Source: a virus (Duplodnaviria > Heunggongvirae > Uroviricota > Caudoviricetes). From it: 41,067 bases of DNA. The translations under genes and the position numbers were made by a program. The stretch lies in the IMG/VR virus record IMGVR_UViG_2541047898_000010. One strand, written 5' to 3'. How positions within the stretch are numbered: position 1 is the first letter of the stretch; the number at the start of each line of letters is the position of its first letter. Shown piece after piece: positions 1,310-34,812 of the stretch. Under the pieces are notes generated by a model. That model searched no databases and was not told the DNA's origin. It worked only from the letters and a program-made list of their open reading frames with translations.

Positions 1310-1672
1310 ATGTTAAAGCTATTTGCAAAGTACACCTCGATTGGTGTGCTGAACACACTTATACACTGGGTGGTTTTTGGTGTATGTATCTATGTCGCGC
1401 ATACAAACCAAGCTCTTGCAAACTTCGCAGGTTTCGTTGTGGCTGTGAGTTTTAGCTTCTTCGCGAATGCAAAATTCACATTCAAAGCATCGACTACAAC
1501 GATGCGCTACATGTTATATGTCGGGTTCATGGGAACACTGAGTGCAACTGTTGGATGGGCTGCTGATAGATGTTCACTTCCTCCAATTGTCACTCTTGTC
1601 ACCTTCTCCGCCATCAGCCTGGTGTGCGGTTTCGTCTATTCAAAGTTCATTGTCTTTAGGGATGCGAAATGA
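1310..1672 (+). CDS. gtrA: GtrA, bactoprenol-linked glucose translocase (flippase)
   Basis: 120 aa small polytopic membrane protein of GtrA type; ATGA overlap with the next gene at 1669-1672. Confidence 0.9.
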
Positions 1673-2580
1673 AGATATCTCTTGTAGTTCCTGTCTTCAA
1701 TGAAGAAGAAGCGATACCAATTTTTTATAAAACGGTACGTGAATTCGAAGAGTTGAAGCCATATGAAGTGGAAATTGTTTTCATAAATGACGGCAGTAAA
1801 GACGCTACGGAGTCAATTATTAATGCTCTGGCTGTTTCAGATCCTCTAGTGGTTCCGCTGTCATTTACACGAAACTTTGGTAAAGAACCCGCATTGTTTG
1901 CAGGGTTAGACCATGCAACCGGGGATGCTGTAATTCCAATTGATGTTGACCTGCAAGACCCGATTGAGGTTATTCCTCATCTTATTGAAAAGTGGCAGGC
2001 AGGTGCTGATATGGTGCTTGCTAAACGATCTGACCGATCAACGGATGGCAGACTGAAGAGGAAAACCGCCGAGTGGTTCTATAAGCTGCATAACAAAATC
2101 AGCAATCCGCAGATCGAGGAAAATGTTGGTGATTTCCGTCTGATGTCTCGTGAAGTCGTAGAGAACATTAAGCTCATGCCAGAACGCAACCTTTTCATGA
2201 AGGGTGTTTTGAGTTGGGTTGGTGGTCGCACTGATATCGTTGATTATGCCCGCGCAGAACGTGTTGCTGGCAGTACCAAGTTCAACGGATGGAAGTTGTG
2301 GAATCTTGCTCTTGAGGGAATTACGAGCTTCTCGACTTTTCCGCTACGTATGTGGACTTACATCGGCCTTCTCGTCGCTGGCTTAGCATTTACATATGGC
2401 GCATGGATGATTCTGGACACTCTGGCGTTTGGAAACCCGGTTAGAGGTTATCCATCCCTGCTAGTATCTATACTTTTCCTTGGTGGTATCCAACTCATTG
2501 GTATTGGTGTTCTTGGTGAGTACATTGGACGAATTTATATTGAAACAAAACAACGCCCAAAATACATTATCAAACGGTAA
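1669..2580 (+). CDS. gtrB: GtrB, bactoprenol glucosyltransferase (GT2 family)
   Basis: 303 aa; N-terminal GT2 domain ([23 protein letters not shown]) and C-terminal membrane helices. Confidence 0.9.
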
Positions 2581-2586
2581 GAATTA

Positions 2587-4053
2587 ATGAAAAGAAAACA
2601 ATATTTTTCTACAATACTGACATGCACAATGCTATTTGTTCTGCCTATAATAATCGCCAATGTTTACTATATAGATGATAATTATAGGTCTATAACTGGC
2701 GATGACGCGTGGCACATAGATGGCCGCCCTTTATCAGACTTATTAATGTACATCGTTAATGGGAATACTCATTTAACAGATACTTCCCCATTACCAACTT
2801 TCATTTCAATTATACTTTTATCAGTAAGTAGTTATTCATTCTCTAAAAGGTACATTGGTTTTAATCATGGTGTAATCCCATTTACTTTGATACCACTTTG
2901 TATTTTTGCCAGCCCATTTTTCATTGAGAATGTAGTTTATAAATTTGATGTGCTTCCAATGTGTGCATCTATTAGCTTATCTTATTTGTTTATAAATGTA
3001 AGTATAGCAAATAGATTTCTCAAGTTGCTGTGTCTATCTGTAATAGTCACATGCATATTATCTGCTTACCAAGCATCTATAAACTTTTTGCTATCACTAG
3101 TTCTATGTGAGTTCTTATCAAGATACAACAACAATGTAAAGAACTTATTTTCTTTTATTATTGAAACAATGGCGTCTCTTTGTATTGGTGCTTTTATTTA
3201 TTTAAAGATTATACTTCCTATTTTTCTTATAACACCTGAGTCCTCAGATCACCCAATGCTAGAGGCGCAAAATATTATTGGTGTTGCTTACAGCAATTCT
3301 CTGTATTACTTAAACTTAATATGGATATCAATACCTGAATCATGGCGATATATCTACTTGTTATTATTTGCTATGTCTATTATTTGCGCAATATGTATTG
3401 CAATAATCAAAAAGGAAAATGGAATTACTGGATTGATTCTATGCCTTATTGCTGGTCTATCGCCGATCATTTCCGTCTTGTGTTCATTTATAAGCCTATC
3501 AACCCTATCTTCGCCATTGCCATTCCCAAGAGTCATGATAGGATTCTCTGGTACATGCCTATTTATTGCAATGGTTATATTTGAGTTCACAAAATCTTTT
3601 AGGGCTAAGGTATTCTATATATTAGCAATACCAGTCTGGTTTTCTTTTGGTATGTACTATTCATATGGAAACGCTTTACGAGCAAGCAGCGATATTACTG
3701 ATGCTATATTTAACAATATAAAAGATGATGTATTTTCATTAACAAAGAAAGAAGACTCTGTAATATTATTCCACGGAGCAACACCAAAAAGCAAAGTGTT
3801 GTTAAACTCAATTAAGAATTACCCTATAATAGGTGGTTTGGTTCCAGATTACCTTACAAACTGGACTTTACCTTATACATATATGTCAAGAATAGGAATT
3901 TCCTATGTAAAAGATTATAGCGTCAATGCTGATGATATAATAAATAACAATAATTTTTGTTCTAATTCTGATAGAATAGAACGATATAATTATAATGTTC
4001 TATTTTTTGATGATATTTCAATAATAGATTTCAGTAAAGAACTTTGCAGGTAA
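2587..4053 (+). CDS. Serotype-specific O-antigen glucosyltransferase (Gtr type-specific, GtrC-like)
   Basis: 488 aa, strongly hydrophobic multi-pass protein, markedly AT-rich compared with neighbours, third gene of a gtrAB cassette. Confidence 0.7.
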   Translation: MKRKQYFSTILTCTMLFVLPIIIANVYYIDDNYRSITGDDAWHIDGRPLSDLLMYIVNGNTHLTDTSPLPTFISIILLSVSSYSFSKRYIGFNHGVIPFTLIPLCIFASPFFIENVVYKFDVLPMCASISLSYLFINVSIANRFLKLLCLSVIVTCILSAYQASINFLLSLVLCEFLSRYNNNVKNLFSFIIETMASLCIGAFIYLKIILPIFLITPESSDHPMLEAQNIIGVAYSNSLYYLNLIWISIPESWRYIYLLLFAMSIICAICIAIIKKENGITGLILCLIAGLSPIISVLCSFISLSTLSSPLPFPRVMIGFSGTCLFIAMVIFEFTKSFRAKVFYILAIPVWFSFGMYYSYGNALRASSDITDAIFNNIKDDVFSLTKKEDSVILFHGATPKSKVLLNSIKNYPIIGGLVPDYLTNWTLPYTYMSRIGISYVKDYSVNADDIINNNNFCSNSDRIERYNYNVLFFDDISIIDFSKELCR

Positions 4054-4055
4054 AA

Positions 4056-4085
4056 AAAGCCCTCTTTAGTGAGGGCTGTTTTTTC
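4056..4085. terminator. Bidirectional intrinsic terminator between convergent gtr cassette and tailspike gene
   Basis: A-run, stem agccctc (4058-4064) / gagggct (4071-4077), then T-run gtttttt. Confidence 0.6.
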
Positions 4086-5934
4086 ACTCAAATAAAGTTT
4101 CCATAATGTATGTGATGCTACCAGTAAATTTAGATGTGGTGCTAATGCTAGAGTCCTGGAGTGGGCTGGTTGCAGGAATTTGGTGATTGTAGAAGTCTAT
4201 AGATGTTGACCCTCTTTCTATAGCAATGGAACACATCCCCACACCAGGTTGTAGTCCTGTAGCAATGGATACAATTCCACTGGCGCGGTTTGACGAAGGG
4301 TAAGGTAAATCCCTGATTTTCATTGCTCCAGTCTGCCCGCTGAATCCATTTAATTCCAAAGAAAATTCGACTGTAACAAGGCCTCCGTCTTTCCTGAATT
4401 TTATATCCGCTGACGCACCTGAAATTCCAACCGTGCTCGTACCAAATGTTATTCTTGCCCCATCAAGAGAGCCTTTAGAGATGAATGGCTCAGGAACTAT
4501 GGACTCAGATGCACCTGTTGCACGATATAAATATTTGTTACCTGGGGTATTAACAATAACAGTAGATCCTGACGCCCATGGACCAGAGCCAATAACAGGC
4601 AACTCTCCACTCTCAAACAGACTGTTAGTAAACACCAAGTTGTTGCCAGGACCGTGTATAAACACGTCGTATTTATATGTTCCACCAGATCTAAAATTGT
4701 TAATTGTTATCCTGTTTTGTGTGCCGTTAATGGATATAAGTGGGCTTTGATCATTGGCGATAGGCAGACATCGGAAAGAATCTATGTTGATTGTGTTCTC
4801 ATTAAGGAATGCTAATGCAGAACCATAATCCAAAGTTTTAGCTCTTGCTTGTTCACAACCACAACCTAATAAATTGATATTAGAACACTTATCAAAAAAA
4901 TAAGCTGTACTTGTGGTTCCATCAGATGCGCATCCTATGAGATTAGAATAACTGACGTTTTCTAAACGAAAAGCCCCGGGAGTCGTATCACCATACTCGT
5001 CTGGTGAGGCGCACCAAACATTGGTATAGGTAGTAGATGTTCCACCATTCTGCCTTATCTGGCCCCATGTCGCGATGTTAGTTAGCGTTGTCAGCCAAAC
5101 ATCATTCATCAAAATAGCGGTCTTAGCATTCTTTACCCCTATCCGCTCAAGAGCATATGCTTGCCCTGCATTTATAGCCAGTCCACATTCTCCTCCAAGA
5201 TCATCAGCCTCTAGCGTAATATCTCTTAATGTCACCCTCTGTGGAAAAGTTTCATAAGATGGAGCCTCAGAATCAACATAAGCTACCGTATCAACAGTAA
5301 ACTCTGGTGCTGATGAGGATTGCCCAGGCTTTAATGTTACAGTTGCATTACCGGTTTTTTTAAATCTCTTTGTGGTTTGAATTTCTGTCCCAGATAGAAT
5401 GAACTGATAATCATGATCTCCATGGTAGGTTTTAAATGAGCTGAATTTAAATCCATCTATTGGGGTGTTCACGTTACCAATGATGTTAGGAAGTTTTTCT
5501 CCGAGAGTGTCACCCACATTGCTTTGGGTGCCGCTTTCTGGGTTTGTGTATCCAACCAGGTTTGCGCCAACTCCTGATCCTAACTCTTGTCTCAATTGGT
5601 CTGGATCATACTTCAGCACATTAGGGAAATAGAATTGCTGAGCACCATATGCATCATAAACAGCCATAGAATGGCCTTGCACGGTAACGAATTTGGCAAT
5701 CTGTCCGTTATATACCGGGTAACCAGCAGCGTTAATGATGATTGGTTGCGAAACAGGAACGTGAGAGCCGTCTTCGTTCTCCACATAAACCTGAATCTGG
5801 TTTTCAGTATTTACCGGATCAGTGTCAATTTTTCCGATATAAATCTTTCCATTAGCTACGGCTTTAAAAGAACGAGCCATAGTGAAGAGTTGCGAAGGCA
5901 TGCTTACTACAACATTGGCTGTAATGTCTGTCAT
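4084..5934 (-). CDS. Tailspike protein (P22/Sf6-type head-binding N-terminus, distinct receptor-binding domain)
   Basis: 616 aa; first ~110 aa ([11 protein letters not shown]...KIDTDPVN...VLKYDPDQ) match P22 tailspike N-terminal domain from memory; ATG at 5932-5934. Confidence 0.9.
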
Positions 5935-6066
5935 TTAATTTGCTCCAGATACAATGAATCGCCGCAGCGTGGCCACGGTTGGTATTTGTTGCATACCGAA
6001 ACGGTACGATTGTTGATTTGTACAGTAGGTTTTACGATGCCATTCCACCCATTTGGTGAGGCATTG
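5935..6066. promoter_or_regulatory. Divergent control region between tailspike and mnt with a perfect 10-bp palindrome CGTGGCCACG (5968-5977)
   Basis: Palindrome read directly; resembles in style the Mnt operator of P22; putative -35 TTGTTG / -10 TACGAT for mnt on plus strand. Confidence 0.4.
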
Positions 6067-6324
6067 ATGATGTACAGCAAATACGATGAGGCGCAGTTCC
6101 ACTTGAGGCTTACGCACGAGTTGCACGCCAAGATTAAACAGCGTGCAAAAATGAATAACAGGTCTATCAATTCCGAAATTGTGGCTACGATGGAAGAATC
6201 ACTCTCCAAACCACCACCTGTAAGCGGGTATCGTGATGAAGAAGAGAGGCTGGCCTCATTAATCTCGGAACGAGTAAAAGAAGTTGCGGCTGATATCCTT
6301 AGAAAAGAAAAAACCCGCGATTAA
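6067..6324 (+). CDS. mnt: Mnt-like ribbon-helix-helix repressor
   Basis: 85 aa from ATG at 6067 (C-terminal part of track ORF 5587..6324); FHLRL...NNRSINSEIV...PPVSGYRDEEERLA resembles P22 Mnt. Confidence 0.75.
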   Translation: MMYSKYDEAQFHLRLTHELHAKIKQRAKMNNRSINSEIVATMEESLSKPPPVSGYRDEEERLASLISERVKEVAADILRKEKTRD

Positions 6325-6333
6325 GCGGGTTTA
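6308..6333. terminator. Hairpin terminator between convergent mnt and antirepressor operon
   Basis: aaaaaa-cccgc-gattaa-gcggg-ttt; overlaps mnt stop codon. Confidence 0.5.
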
Positions 6334-6338
6334 GTTGG

Positions 6339-6560
6339 TTAGTTATCAAAAAGTCCGTACGTTTCTTCTTCTTCAGGTGTAAGGGGAAGAATCTCTACTC
6401 TATCTATAGATACCTTTTCAATGTACCCATGAGGTCTACTTAAAATTAAAGCTCTCTCATGCCACAGAACTCCAAGAATGTGATACCTTCCAGCATCACC
6501 TTTTACCCTAGCTCTTCCTTTGATTCTTGGCGGCATAATGCCATATTTTTTCTTTGCCAT
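6339..6560 (-). CDS. Hypothetical small protein, last gene of antirepressor operon
   Basis: 73 aa ORF; start overlaps stop of upstream gene at 6560. Confidence 0.45.
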   Translation of the reverse strand: MAKKKYGIMPPRIKGRARVKGDAGRYHILGVLWHERALILSRPHGYIEKVSIDRVEILPLTPEEEETYGLFDN

Positions 6561-7288
6561 TATGCAACATTACTCCCATGAATCAGGTGTTGTAGTGCTT
6601 TAACGCCTTCCGCATTGTAGCGGAATGCTTCCACCTGTTTGCTGGAATGCGCAGATTTATCCAGGAAGAACTTCCCGTACTGCTCAGTTTTGAGGTTGTT
6701 TGCGTTAGCAATGCGACCAATCTTGTTGGCCGTTACTCCAAGCTGCTCTGCAACCTCCCCTGCTGAGTAGTAATGCTCTTCTATTGCCGGAAGAGGTATT
6801 GCATTAAAACCAACGAGCGGGTTGATTATACTTGCTGCCGCTGTCTGCTTTGCCTCAGGCGCAAGATTTGGCATCAGATCGAACAGATTGGTAACAGCTT
6901 CAACCGTCATTTTCAATGTTCGCGCTTGACGATACTCAACAAGTCCACTCGCTGATTTACCGCTTTTAATGTGCGCTTCTTGCATGCTTTCAAGTTGGTC
7001 TACCAGTGAGCGGCGAACGGCTTTTGACTCGCGAGCGGCAACTCGCAATGCTTGCTTGATTGACATCTCAATGATAACCATCGAAGTTTTGTTCGCTTTT
7101 TGCACTACACTTTTTGTGTAGTGCTCTCCATCCAATTCATCTTCAATTTTCTCGATGAATTTGTTATTACGAACCTCCGGCTCACCGCACTGTCTACGAG
7201 CCTGATTTACCATCTCAAGCAGGCGCTGGCTGTCAATGGTTTTATCCGTGACAACGGATCCGATGTTTGCTACATTCTTAAAAGTCAT
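6560..7288 (-). CDS. Antirepressor-like protein (KilAC/ANT-type C-terminal region)
   Basis: Track ORF 6560..7375 begins with TTG; an internal ATG at 7286-7288 is preceded by AAGGAA; position downstream of arc-like gene. Confidence 0.55.
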   Translation of the reverse strand: MTFKNVANIGSVVTDKTIDSQRLLEMVNQARRQCGEPEVRNNKFIEKIEDELDGEHYTKSVVQKANKTSMVIIEMSIKQALRVAARESKAVRRSLVDQLESMQEAHIKSGKSASGLVEYRQARTLKMTVEAVTNLFDLMPNLAPEAKQTAAASIINPLVGFNAIPLPAIEEHYYSAGEVAEQLGVTANKIGRIANANNLKTEQYGKFFLDKSAHSSKQVEAFRYNAEGVKALQHLIHGSNVA

Positions 7289-7375
7289 TAGGCATTCCTT
7301 ATGTGGTAGTAAGGGTGTGACATAGGCCGCCAGCAGCACACTGGCGGTTTTCTTTTGCGCCGTCCTGTGCACCAA

Positions 7376-8002
7376 TCAATGAATCCATTCCTCGCCGCGC
7401 AGTTTTGCCAGCATTGGCTGAGCGTTCTTTACGACAAAATTGTTGGTATCAAGATTCTTCATTTCACGAAGAAGTGATTTCTTGGTTTCTTCTGACATGT
7501 AGCGAGTCTCATATGCAATATCGTAAATCCTTCCTGAAAGCTCAGAACCAATTTGCTTCATTCCTGGGTAGATGTGTTTGCACATTTGTTGACTCTTCTC
7601 CATCCACAATTGTAAGTAGCAGAGATTAACCAGCTCTTCGTCAGTGAACTGTTTTGCAATCGGTGAGCATTCTGCCTGCCGATCCAAAATATCCAGCACC
7701 CAGCGGCGGAACTCTTTGGCTACCGGAGTGCGAGCAAACATCGCGATTAGGTGGGCACCGCGTAGTGAGAAAACTCGCACTTTTTTGCGATAATTTCCTG
7801 AGGTACTCACTTCGAGTACCTGAGTCATCCCGGCGCTAAACTCATCGCTATACTTGTTATAAATCATTGTTACTGCACGGCTATTTGCATATTTAAGTGC
7901 AGATGCAATATTAGATGATGTAAACCAAACACCATGCATATCACGGGTGGGCACCAACTCAACTCCGTGGAAGTTGTAATCTGATTTTGCTACAATATTC
8001 AT
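7376..8002 (-). CDS. Bro-N domain antirepressor-like protein
   Basis: Track ORF 7376..8107 begins with TTG; ATG at 8000-8002 preceded by AGGAAA; N-terminus FHGVELVPTRDMHGVWFTSSNIASALKY resembles Bro-N / KilA-N fold. Confidence 0.6.
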   Translation of the reverse strand: MNIVAKSDYNFHGVELVPTRDMHGVWFTSSNIASALKYANSRAVTMIYNKYSDEFSAGMTQVLEVSTSGNYRKKVRVFSLRGAHLIAMFARTPVAKEFRRWVLDILDRQAECSPIAKQFTDEELVNLCYLQLWMEKSQQMCKHIYPGMKQIGSELSGRIYDIAYETRYMSEETKKSLLREMKNLDTNNFVVKNAQPMLAKLRGEEWIH

Positions 8003-8075
8003 GTTAGTTTCCTTGCATACGGTTACTGACATAGAGGCCCGGTTTGTGTTCGCGCACTGCCGGGCTTCACTATTT

Positions 8076-8249
8076 TTATTGGATGACAACATCGCCCTTT
8101 GCCTCAAGTTTCATTAATAACTCCATTCGATAAGCTATCTCTGCCTGAATTGACCTATGGCATCTTTTTGCTGATTCGCGGATATGTGAATCAACCTTTT
8201 CTGTAAAACGAACCTGACGCGGCTTGATGGAAGATATCTTTTCAGTCAT
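8076..8249 (-). CDS. arc: Arc-like ribbon-helix-helix regulator (not in the ORF track, 57 codons)
   Basis: Hand translation: MTEKISSIKPRQVRFTEKVDSHIRESAKRCHRSIQAEIAYRMELLMKLEAKGDVVIQ; ATG 8247-8249 preceded by AGGAG; pattern matches P22 Arc. Confidence 0.55.
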   Translation of the reverse strand: MTEKISSIKPRQVRFTEKVDSHIRESAKRCHRSIQAEIAYRMELLMKLEAKGDVVIQ

Positions 8250-8254
8250 TATGC

Positions 8255-8348
8255 ACTCCTGTTTTTGAAAAACTCATAATCTCACTTTTTGAGGTTTGAT
8301 TATTCACTCACACTCAGTATGAGTCAATGAATTTTTTATGGTGAACTA
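8255..8348. promoter_or_regulatory. Divergent promoter/operator region between arc-ant operon and the second repressor gene
   Basis: Minus-strand -35 TTGACT (plus 8322-8327) and -10 AATAAT (plus 8299-8304); inverted repeat ACTCA-gta-TGAGT (8313-8325); palindrome GTTTTTGAAAAAC (8261-8273). Confidence 0.4.
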
Positions 8349-8990
8349 ATGAATTTTGACGATCAATTCCCATCAAGAGTATCTCTGGCAAGACAGTCGA
8401 GGGGTATGACGCAGGCGCAGTTGTCAAAATTAGCTGGTGTTGTTCAACGTCAAATAGCTGCATACGAGGGTGGTGAGGCTAAACCACGGCTTCGTGTATT
8501 GCAGGCATTAGCCAACGCATTAGGCACTACGGCTGAGTGGTTAGCTCTGGGTGAAGGCCAGGGGCCGGGAACAAAAAACGTCATGCCTGACGTTCTGGTA
8601 AAGCAAATACCAATCCTCAAACTAGATGAAGTTATGCATTACCTAAACACAGGTGAACATTCATCGTCTAGATTTCATCCGGCAATATACAATGTTGGTG
8701 ACTCTGCATTTGCATTGACTATTGAAGGTGAAGCTATGACTACAAGTTCAGGTATTAGCTTTCCCAGAGGATCGGTTGTCACGTTCAGCCCTCTAGTAAA
8801 AGCTAAAAGCAAAGATTATGTAATAGCATCTTTGGATAAAGAGCAAATATTGAGCTTCAAACAGGTTTACATTGGTGAAATAGAGACAAACCTAGTATCC
8901 CTAAACCCAATGTATCCTAATATTCTTGTTAGAAATGAAGATGTTAGTATTTTGGCAACCGCAGTTTACCTTGAAATCCCGTTGCTTTGA
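8349..8990 (+). CDS. LexA/cI-like repressor (HTH_XRE + S24 peptidase-like domain), catalytic Ser apparently replaced by Ala
   Basis: 213 aa; N-terminal HTH (MTQAQLSKLAGVVQRQIAAYE); C-terminal region aligns with the 434 cI in this window (VEGDSMT vs IEGEAMT; FKKL vs FKQV). Confidence 0.8.
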   Translation: MNFDDQFPSRVSLARQSRGMTQAQLSKLAGVVQRQIAAYEGGEAKPRLRVLQALANALGTTAEWLALGEGQGPGTKNVMPDVLVKQIPILKLDEVMHYLNTGEHSSSRFHPAIYNVGDSAFALTIEGEAMTTSSGISFPRGSVVTFSPLVKAKSKDYVIASLDKEQILSFKQVYIGEIETNLVSLNPMYPNILVRNEDVSILATAVYLEIPLL

Positions 8991-9050
8991 TATCCTTTAG
9001 GAAGCGACACATTATCATCTGGTATCCTGCGTAAAACTAAGGAGGTTGGT

Positions 9051-33459: not shown

Positions 33460-34812
<1,353 letters not shown>

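Follow-up and report, generated by a model that had tools for sequence, protein, structure and literature searches.

The virus record IMGVR_UViG_2541047898_000010 of IMG/VR, called the window here over its whole length of 41,067 nucleotides (nt), is a complete P22-like (Lederbergvirus) genome of Escherichia coli phage type. Between its gene-16 homologue and its tailspike gene, in the slot that in P22 holds immI, with sieA adjoining, it carries an operon of four genes on the - strand, here called RHH57, ant1, ant2 and orf73, and divergent from it the gene of a CI-like repressor, the immI repressor. Gene and domain content, promoter and terminator sequences, conservation, covariation and module exchange together make it fairly likely that this region is a mosaic variant of the P22-like immI, or 'ant moron', with the layered control proposed below. 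It appears to be a reshuffled form of a known and highly mosaic system, with a pseudo-protease CI-like repressor and a divergent Arc-family protein in the place of mnt-arc. As far as the text of Villafane et al., 2008 (PMC2629481) goes, the interval from gene 16 to the tailspike gene is the 'ant moron', with 10 gene-content types in 16 genomes, and some of these have ant without arc and hence must be controlled differently. The original prediction, made from the sequence alone, had described a P22-like antirepressor operon, and this stands in outline; the coordinates it gave for all four open reading frames (ORFs) are exact, and the same four genes are found in the RefSeq annotation of a 99.8% identical E. 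coli prophage. Overlooked were a Mnt homologue, two candidate antisense RNA genes and the loss of a catalytic serine from the immI repressor.

The strongest argument that the immI repressor and RHH57 form a cassette controlling the ant genes is that this cassette travels with antirepressor-type genes of any type. The segment 5935-8082, which holds the Mnt homologue mnt1, orf73, ant2, ant1 and the spacer with the first candidate antisense RNA gene (sar1), is 94-97% identical in other E. coli prophages, and in these siblings it is joined to a canonical arc and divergent mnt cassette. The slot of RHH57 is filled there by a gene for 57 amino acids (aa), named 'Arc family' by NCBI, and the similarity to these arc/mnt-type siblings stops among the final codons of arc/RHH57. 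The spacer within the cassette of the window is always about 99 bp long. Klebsiella prophages of another morphotype have this cassette in front of a P22_AR_N-type ant, and in Yersinia and Pantoea it stands before tandems in which a Bro-N/P22_AR_C gene comes first and a KilA-N/ANT or N-domain/ANT gene second. Among sequenced phages Escherichia phage JEP4 comes closest, being 96% identical across 92% of positions 6000-9100. At least 80% of the region is carried by 18 of 5,426 complete E. coli genomes, and the variant is present, though uncharacterised, in one of 50,697 public phage records; literature searches returned no description of a cassette of RHH57 and such a repressor.

The product of ant1 (7376-8002, - strand) is a 208 aa protein with the Bro-N domain that had been predicted for it (Pfam 1.9e-10; 41.6 bits against a cut-off of 25.6), followed by the P22 antirepressor C-terminal domain, P22_AR_C (2.8e-14). 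It matches phrog_245, 'anti-repressor Ant', at 2e-53. The C-terminal domain is the only part it has in common with P22 Ant, with 29% identity over 69 residues (P22 Ant residues 206-274), the N-terminal domain being Bro-N here and P22_AR_N in P22. The second antirepressor-type gene, ant2 (6560-7288, - strand), encodes 242 aa with a KilA-N/APSES-like N-terminal domain, a helical linker and a MerR/excisionase-like winged helix-turn-helix (HTH) C-terminal domain. Its N-terminal domain recurs in other proteins, where it is fused to a true ANT domain, and the best structural matches of its model are phage proteins annotated as antirepressor or KilAC. The protein had been proposed as a second antirepressor-like product; this fits the domain sharing and the fold match with antirepressor-type proteins, while the assignment to Pfam ANT/KilAC fails, and we therefore call ant2 antirepressor-type only in respect of its fold and of the domain it shares. 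The last gene of the operon, orf73 (6339-6560, - strand), encodes a conserved 73 aa protein (phrog_4977 over its full length, 5e-54); its ATG overlaps the ant2 stop codon (TAATG), and it is predicted to be translationally coupled to ant2. It has no match in Pfam, NCBIfam, PADLOC or the Protein Data Bank (PDB), and it is optional, one locus (L004) and several viral loci having no copy. The ant1 coding sequence contains a perfect 8-bp inverted repeat, AGGTACTC-gaagt-GAGTACCT (7806-7826), with further ACTCA/TGAGT cores around it (three TGAGT in 7805-7844) and a + strand fold with z -3.0; this may be coincidence, or else an RNA structure or an operator within the gene.

The most serious competitor to an antirepressor operon is that ant1 and ant2 encode proteins of the Bro-N/KilA-N/Rha class that regulate by binding DNA, take over the host or counter its defences, in a tightly controlled moron. 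Both proteins do have folds of the DNA-binding type (Bro-N in the one, the APSES-like N-terminal domain and MerR-like winged HTH in the other), ant2 fails the Pfam ANT profile, the resemblance of ant1 to P22 Ant is limited to some 70 residues at 29% identity, and the JEP4 annotation labels the two proteins Rha and KilA. We nevertheless consider this unlikely, though well worth keeping in mind, since the cassette lies in the immI slot, is exchangeable with mnt-arc and comes with a conserved sar homologue, since the same cassette stands before the Klebsiella protein with P22_AR_N, which is the N-terminal domain of P22 Ant itself, and since the top structural matches of ant2 carry antirepressor or KilAC annotations.

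A candidate antisense RNA gene lies on the + strand over the start of each ant gene. The first, sar1 (7988-8077), has an extended -10 box TGcTACAAT at 7988-7996 and a predicted start near 8003; a 5' stem-loop is followed by a terminator stem (8034-8042/8060-8068) and a T-run which ends at the RHH57 stop codon, and the whole is complementary to the ribosome-binding site (RBS) and start codon of ant1. This region aligns with Psar/sar of P22, the sequence of which comes from RNA-seq (PMC13397905), and with its relatives, and is homologous to P22 sar; P22 sar is, according to the text of two papers, an experimentally established antisense RNA (PMC2629481, PMC13397905). Like P22 sar it folds as two stem-loops (z -5.69 vs -5.54 for P22). 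Among 14 distinct versions, P22 included, pairing in the terminator stem is 96.8%, with compensatory double changes at 6 of its 11 pairs; this covariation score was reached by none of 500 shuffles, with slid controls far lower. The second, sar2 (7268-7356), has an extended -10 box TGcTACATT at 7268-7276, a predicted start near 7283 and, from the promoter and terminator scan, an intrinsic terminator at 7324-7350 with TTTTCTTTT after it; the RBS and start codon of ant2 are complementary to sar2. In its ten distinct versions the frame TGnTAnAnT is invariant and an 8-bp stem is 100% paired, with double changes in three pairs and a covariation score again reached by 0 of 500 shuffles. Both -10 boxes fall within codons 3-6, in ant genes with N-terminal domains unrelated to one another. 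Such ant genes share an x-I/V/L-Ala motif within their first 5-7 codons (MNIVA, MSIA, MKSIA, MTxLNLA; window positions 7268-7288 and 7988-8002, and loci L006-L040), and this looks like a nucleotide-level constraint showing in the protein, owing to the TGnTAnAnT antisense promoter on the opposite strand. Searched at a permissive threshold, Rfam gave no match to a sar or C4 family; a symR match at 8000-8071 (+) overlaps sar1 with an E of 0.61, far under the threshold. The idea that sar2 also pairs with RHH57 mRNA, through a repeat (D4, 79% over 24 nt) between the initiation regions of RHH57 and ant2, was dropped, as this repeat is no better than chance repeats and is absent from the Pantoea locus.

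The same hairpins might instead act in the sense ant mRNA, by processing, attenuation or stabilisation, with no antisense RNA made at all. Hairpins do form on either strand, covariation by itself is strand-blind, and the single-sequence z of sar2 is weak. But T-runs follow the stems on the + strand only, and the G-U pairs (12 cells in sar1 and 5 in sar2) are likewise found only on that strand, all 17 becoming C-A mismatches in a sense RNA, so that selection evidently acts on the antisense transcripts; the extended -10 box keeps a fixed distance from the start codon across unrelated ant N-terminal domains, and the homologous element of P22 is a documented antisense RNA. A purely sense role thus appears quite improbable, and we infer from these sequence features that sar1 and sar2 are transcribed and function as antisense RNAs in vivo.

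The immI repressor (8349-8990, + strand), 213 aa long, has an N-terminal HTH of the 434/Cro type (HTH_3, 9.3e-13) and a C-terminal LexA/CI-like S24 domain (Peptidase_S24, 1.3e-12), which matches the C-terminal domain of lambda CI at 1e-7; the supposition that the operon here is paired with a repressor other than Mnt is thereby borne out. It keeps a Lys opposite Lys192 of lambda CI. Opposite the nucleophile, Ser149, it has Ala129 (GEAM, codon GCT; LTIEGEAMT vs LEVEGNSMT in lambda CI), and an Ala occupies this position throughout the 26 W-type loci, as it does in five of the six clusters whose identity is at least 72%. Distant relatives retain the catalytic Ser; those at 42-49% identity (loci L006, L007 and L008) have GDSM or GESM, and several distant relatives also have C-terminal extensions of 50-70 residues. 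No Ala-Gly or Cys-Gly scissile bond is present in the linker of the immI repressor, nor at the place where MVRAG of the primary (immC) repressor aligns. Because of the change from Ser to Ala and the missing Ala-Gly site, the immI repressor is probably not cleavable with RecA, its S24 domain serving the DNA-binding dimer. The primary repressor (33779-34411, + strand) is of the 434 type, as had been suspected of the cI of this phage, with 133 bits to the 434 repressor over its N-terminal 69 residues, which places the phage in the imm434 type at immC; its C-terminal domain has the full cleavage set MVRAG/GDSM/FKKL (Ala-Gly, Ser and Lys).

These features bear on the proposal that the 213 aa repressor is an SOS sensor which cleaves itself on DNA damage and so releases the antirepressors, in a relay like that of the LexA-controlled antirepressors of the Gifsy phages or Tum of 186. 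The S24 fold with its catalytic Lys, and the GDSM or GESM of the distant relatives, would suit such a role. The loss of the Ser in every W-type copy, the linker devoid of Ala-Gly and Cys-Gly, and the failure to find any LexA box (CTGT-N8-ACAG with up to one mismatch) at the ant promoter, in 8250-8348, all speak against it, and since the primary 434-type repressor has the complete cleavage set no such relay is needed; we regard it as very unlikely. A LexA-like near-match at 6010-6025 is within chance expectation.

RHH57 (8076-8249, - strand), the first gene of the operon, encodes a 57 aa protein of the Arc family of ribbon-helix-helix (RHH) proteins. It had been read by hand as a gene missing from the ORF list; its absence merely reflects the 60 aa cut-off of that list, and RefSeq annotates it. 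An AGGAG lies 7 nt upstream of the ATG, the protein matches phrog_10182 at 2e-37, and its orthologs form 30 protein clusters at 81-93% identity, from Salmonella, Klebsiella, Serratia, Hafnia and Yersinia. Between the window and Klebsiella there are 41 nucleotide differences, 30 of them at third codon positions, with 25 synonymous vs 7 non-synonymous codon changes. With its Shine-Dalgarno sequence, its cross-genus clusters and its mostly synonymous divergence, RHH57 is a real gene under purifying selection, beyond chance. On its own, the protein of the window reaches 16.0 bits on Pfam Arc (PF03869), under the cut-off of 20.4, and an 81% identical Yersinia ortholog passes it with 21.2 bits. An exhaustive profile search of 1.84 billion representatives gave eight remote relatives, and three of them (P0175, P0176 and P0178) reach 29.1, 30.9 and 87.5 bits on Pfam Arc. 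The family profile broadened in this way aligns with the Arc/Mnt alignment in hhalign at 95.5% probability (E 1.3e-8), and against the PDB the RHH57 family profile finds AmrZ (1.1e-5), pArc (1.7e-4) and Arc (0.014). The turn motif (G/H)-R-S-x-x-x-E-I is present, HRSIQAEI of RHH57 aligning with HRSMNSEI of AmrZ and GRSVNSEI of Arc. That RHH57 is instead the ParD-like antitoxin of a toxin-antitoxin pair, as its best single-sequence Pfam match (ParD_like, 19.8 bits or 8e-4, under the cut-off of 23) might suggest, can be set aside as most improbable, given that no toxin-like gene adjoins it, that ParD-like proteins are themselves RHH proteins, that its family profile matches Arc, AmrZ and pArc, and that arc fills the same slot in the sibling prophages.

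The 99-bp control region (8250-8348) between RHH57 and the immI repressor gene holds the best site of the promoter scan, P_ant, on the - strand: TTGACT (8327-8322), a spacing of 17 and AATAAT (8304-8299), with 10 of 12 positions matching, so that the near-consensus promoter expected here is indeed present. Its geometry is retained in diverged loci. A weaker candidate, P_rep, can be read from the sequence on the + strand as TTGATT (8296-8301)-16-TATGAG (8318-8323), and would serve the repressor gene; every hexamer of either promoter overlaps an opposite hexamer of the other, a geometry that matches Pant/Pmnt of P22. TGAGT/ACTCA cores lie at 8272-8276, 8306-8310, 8312-8316 and 8320-8324, forming the palindromes ACTCA-gta-TGAGT (8312-8324) and ACTCA-N9-TGAGT (8306-8324). 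The 99-bp spacer thus has four TGAGT, where about 0.19 would be expected from the window-wide density of the pentamer (78 in 41,067 bases), and the outer ACTCA-N9-TGAGT frame is retained in all close variants. The inverted repeat ACTCA-gta-TGAGT, which had been pointed out as overlapping the promoter, does lie on the -35 box of P_ant; this 5-3-5 palindrome is by itself within chance, and it is not strictly conserved. The operator comparison covered four intergenic types, W, K, Y and P, which have in common an element ATGAGTTTT downstream of the -10 box, while the palindromes at the -35 box are type-specific. The TGAGT region may act as operator, and P_rep as promoter.

On these grounds the following control can be proposed, in which the pairing of operators with proteins, the antisense function in vivo, and the antirepressor activity and its targets are what we infer. 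The strong P_ant would drive RHH57-ant1-ant2-orf73 toward the tailspike gene. In the prophage, the 213 aa repressor would keep the operon off from the TGAGT-rich operator region covering P_ant, the role of Mnt in P22, and since the weak P_rep wholly overlaps P_ant, repression of P_ant should also free P_rep. The S24 domain, with neither the nucleophilic Ser nor Ala-Gly, would serve for dimerisation only, and the switch would not be triggered by RecA. On infection of a cell without immI repressor, P_ant would fire, and a dimer of RHH57, the first product, would turn it down again, as Arc does. The RNAs sar1 and sar2, with their starts a little within ant1 and ant2 and their ends at the terminators in the spacers upstream, would each pair with the RBS of its own ant gene and limit its translation, like sar of P22. 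Ant1 and Ant2 would then bind and inactivate CI-type repressors, the phage's own of the 434 type, those of resident heteroimmune prophages, or both.

Several findings weigh against this picture of a layered immI. The four-type intergenic comparison gave no operator that could be assigned to either the immI repressor or RHH57; both regulators have nearly invariant recognition helices, although the palindromes near the promoter vary among locus types, and two close relatives, L028 and L031, have one arm of ACTCA-gta-TGAGT broken (CGAGT). Folded as a single sequence, sar2 is unremarkable (z -2.0). Pfam ANT/KilAC (PF03374) has no match in ant2 or in 19 of its relatives, the confidence of the structural model of ant2 is only moderate, and to our knowledge calling Bro-N, KilA-N and Rha proteins 'antirepressor' is for the most part a matter of untested annotation. 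The presence of mnt1 means that the control logic may hold a further layer. Finally, an AlphaFold2 monomer of RHH57, built on 24 sequences of at least 81% identity, is a single helix (16-50) with no strand or turn. Since the alignment is shallow, the RHH fold is that of an obligate dimer and the profile evidence for Arc is strong, we treat this model as uninformative and not as a refutation; of the claim that an RHH protein heads the operon, membership of the Arc family by profile stands, and the RHH fold itself is putative.

Somewhat further than the mosaic immI goes a joint reading, which we put forward tentatively as one possibility. The HTH/pseudo-protease repressor and RHH57 would together form a portable bistable cassette for ant control, swapped with mnt-arc across morphotypes before any antirepressor type; each ant would have its own cis-antisense small RNA, the promoter of which is imprinted in the first codons of the gene (I/V/L-Ala, residues 3-7); and the tandem Ants would have different targets, so that one phage could induce several prophages.

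P22 immI is the textbook case of layered control by two repressors and an antisense RNA. The locus described here has in common with it the slot, an Arc-family RHH protein first in the operon, P22_AR_C, a homologous sar over the ant RBS, overlapping divergent promoters and sieA next door. It differs in that the divergent repressor is HTH/S24-like and not Mnt, that a Mnt homologue lies at the opposite end, convergent with the operon, that the N-terminal domain of the first Ant is Bro-N in place of P22_AR_N, and that another antirepressor-type gene, accompanied by a sar-like RNA of its own, and a 73 aa gene are present in addition. The ant morons of epsilon34, CUS-3, HS-1, UTI-1 and APEC-1 occupy the same slot with many gene sets; the text describing them (PMC2629481) has neither a cassette of CI-like repressor and RHH protein nor a second antisense RNA, though this comparison is with the text alone and the locus may match one of its types. 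Like the CI-Cro switch of lambda and 434, the cassette opposes a CI-like repressor with HTH and S24 fold to a divergently encoded small DNA-binding protein, the first product of the facing operon, with close-packed promoters; here, however, the small protein is RHH and not an HTH Cro, the repressor has neither the catalytic Ser nor Ala-Gly, and the operon is of antirepressor type and not one of lytic functions. The LexA-controlled antirepressors of Gifsy-1/3 and Fels-2 and Tum of 186 (PMC3121763) are likewise silenced by a protein of the LexA-family fold, but here there is no LexA box and the repressor is phage-encoded and probably non-cleavable, while the primary repressor is cleavable. A small antisense RNA that limits antirepressor synthesis recalls P1/P7 immI too. 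There the c4 antisense RNA limits icd-ant, and in P1 it arises by processing of the same transcript and is trans-acting; the window has no sequence relation to it and no C4 match in Rfam, and its RNAs are candidate cis-antisense RNAs with promoters of their own.

The Mnt homologue mnt1 (6070-6324, + strand; 84 aa, Pfam Arc 3.6e-14) is 44% identical to P22 Mnt and, like it, an RHH protein. It does not hold the divergent position of a maintenance repressor, being convergent with the ant operon, 1.9 kb away, and divergent from the tailspike gene (4084-5934, - strand). It is 98-99% identical to the tailspike-proximal gene of the sibling prophages, and it stays with the ant module irrespective of the control cassette upstream. 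It could serve in autoregulation, in tailspike read-through or in action on incoming phages. A candidate operator for it, CGTGGCCACG (5968-5977), a perfect palindrome unique in the window, was rejected, as both it and the adjacent -10 box TACAAT are unconserved in four close relatives; the arc/mnt2-type palindrome of the sibling prophages, TGGTTCTAGAACCA, does not occur in the window, so mnt1 is without an obvious site of that kind. At the junction of orf73 and mnt1 the terminator scan found a bidirectional intrinsic terminator (6311-6332), AAACCCGC-ttaa-TCGCGGGTTT followed by a T-run; T-runs are present on both strands, and late-operon transcription must cross it to reach the tailspike gene.

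Downstream of the immI repressor gene lies the sieA homologue (9051-9545, + strand; phrog_7745, 7e-109). A promoter-like TTGATA-17-CATTAT at 8987-9015 occupies the 60-bp gap between the two, which may be co-transcribed or separate, either being possible. Next comes the gene-16 homologue (9568-11409, - strand), the first of the ejection-protein genes. On the other side of the region, between the integrase gene (1-1158) and the tailspike gene, positions 1310-4053 hold three ORFs on the + strand (120, 303 and 488 aa); in P22-like phages this interval is occupied by the O-antigen modification genes gtrABC.

For phage regulation in general the gain is incremental and brings no new principle. The locus does show the layers of immI as separate and exchangeable modules, one ant/sar module being found behind two unrelated cassettes, mnt-arc in the one case and the CI-like repressor with its RHH partner in the other, and the antisense layer appears to have been repeated for a second antirepressor-type gene. 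It also offers a natural pseudo-protease, a repressor of the CI/LexA fold which lacks its nucleophile and has apparently been kept for DNA binding and dimerisation only. If it is true that the Ants inactivate different repressors, such prophages could drive cross-induction in polylysogenic E. coli.

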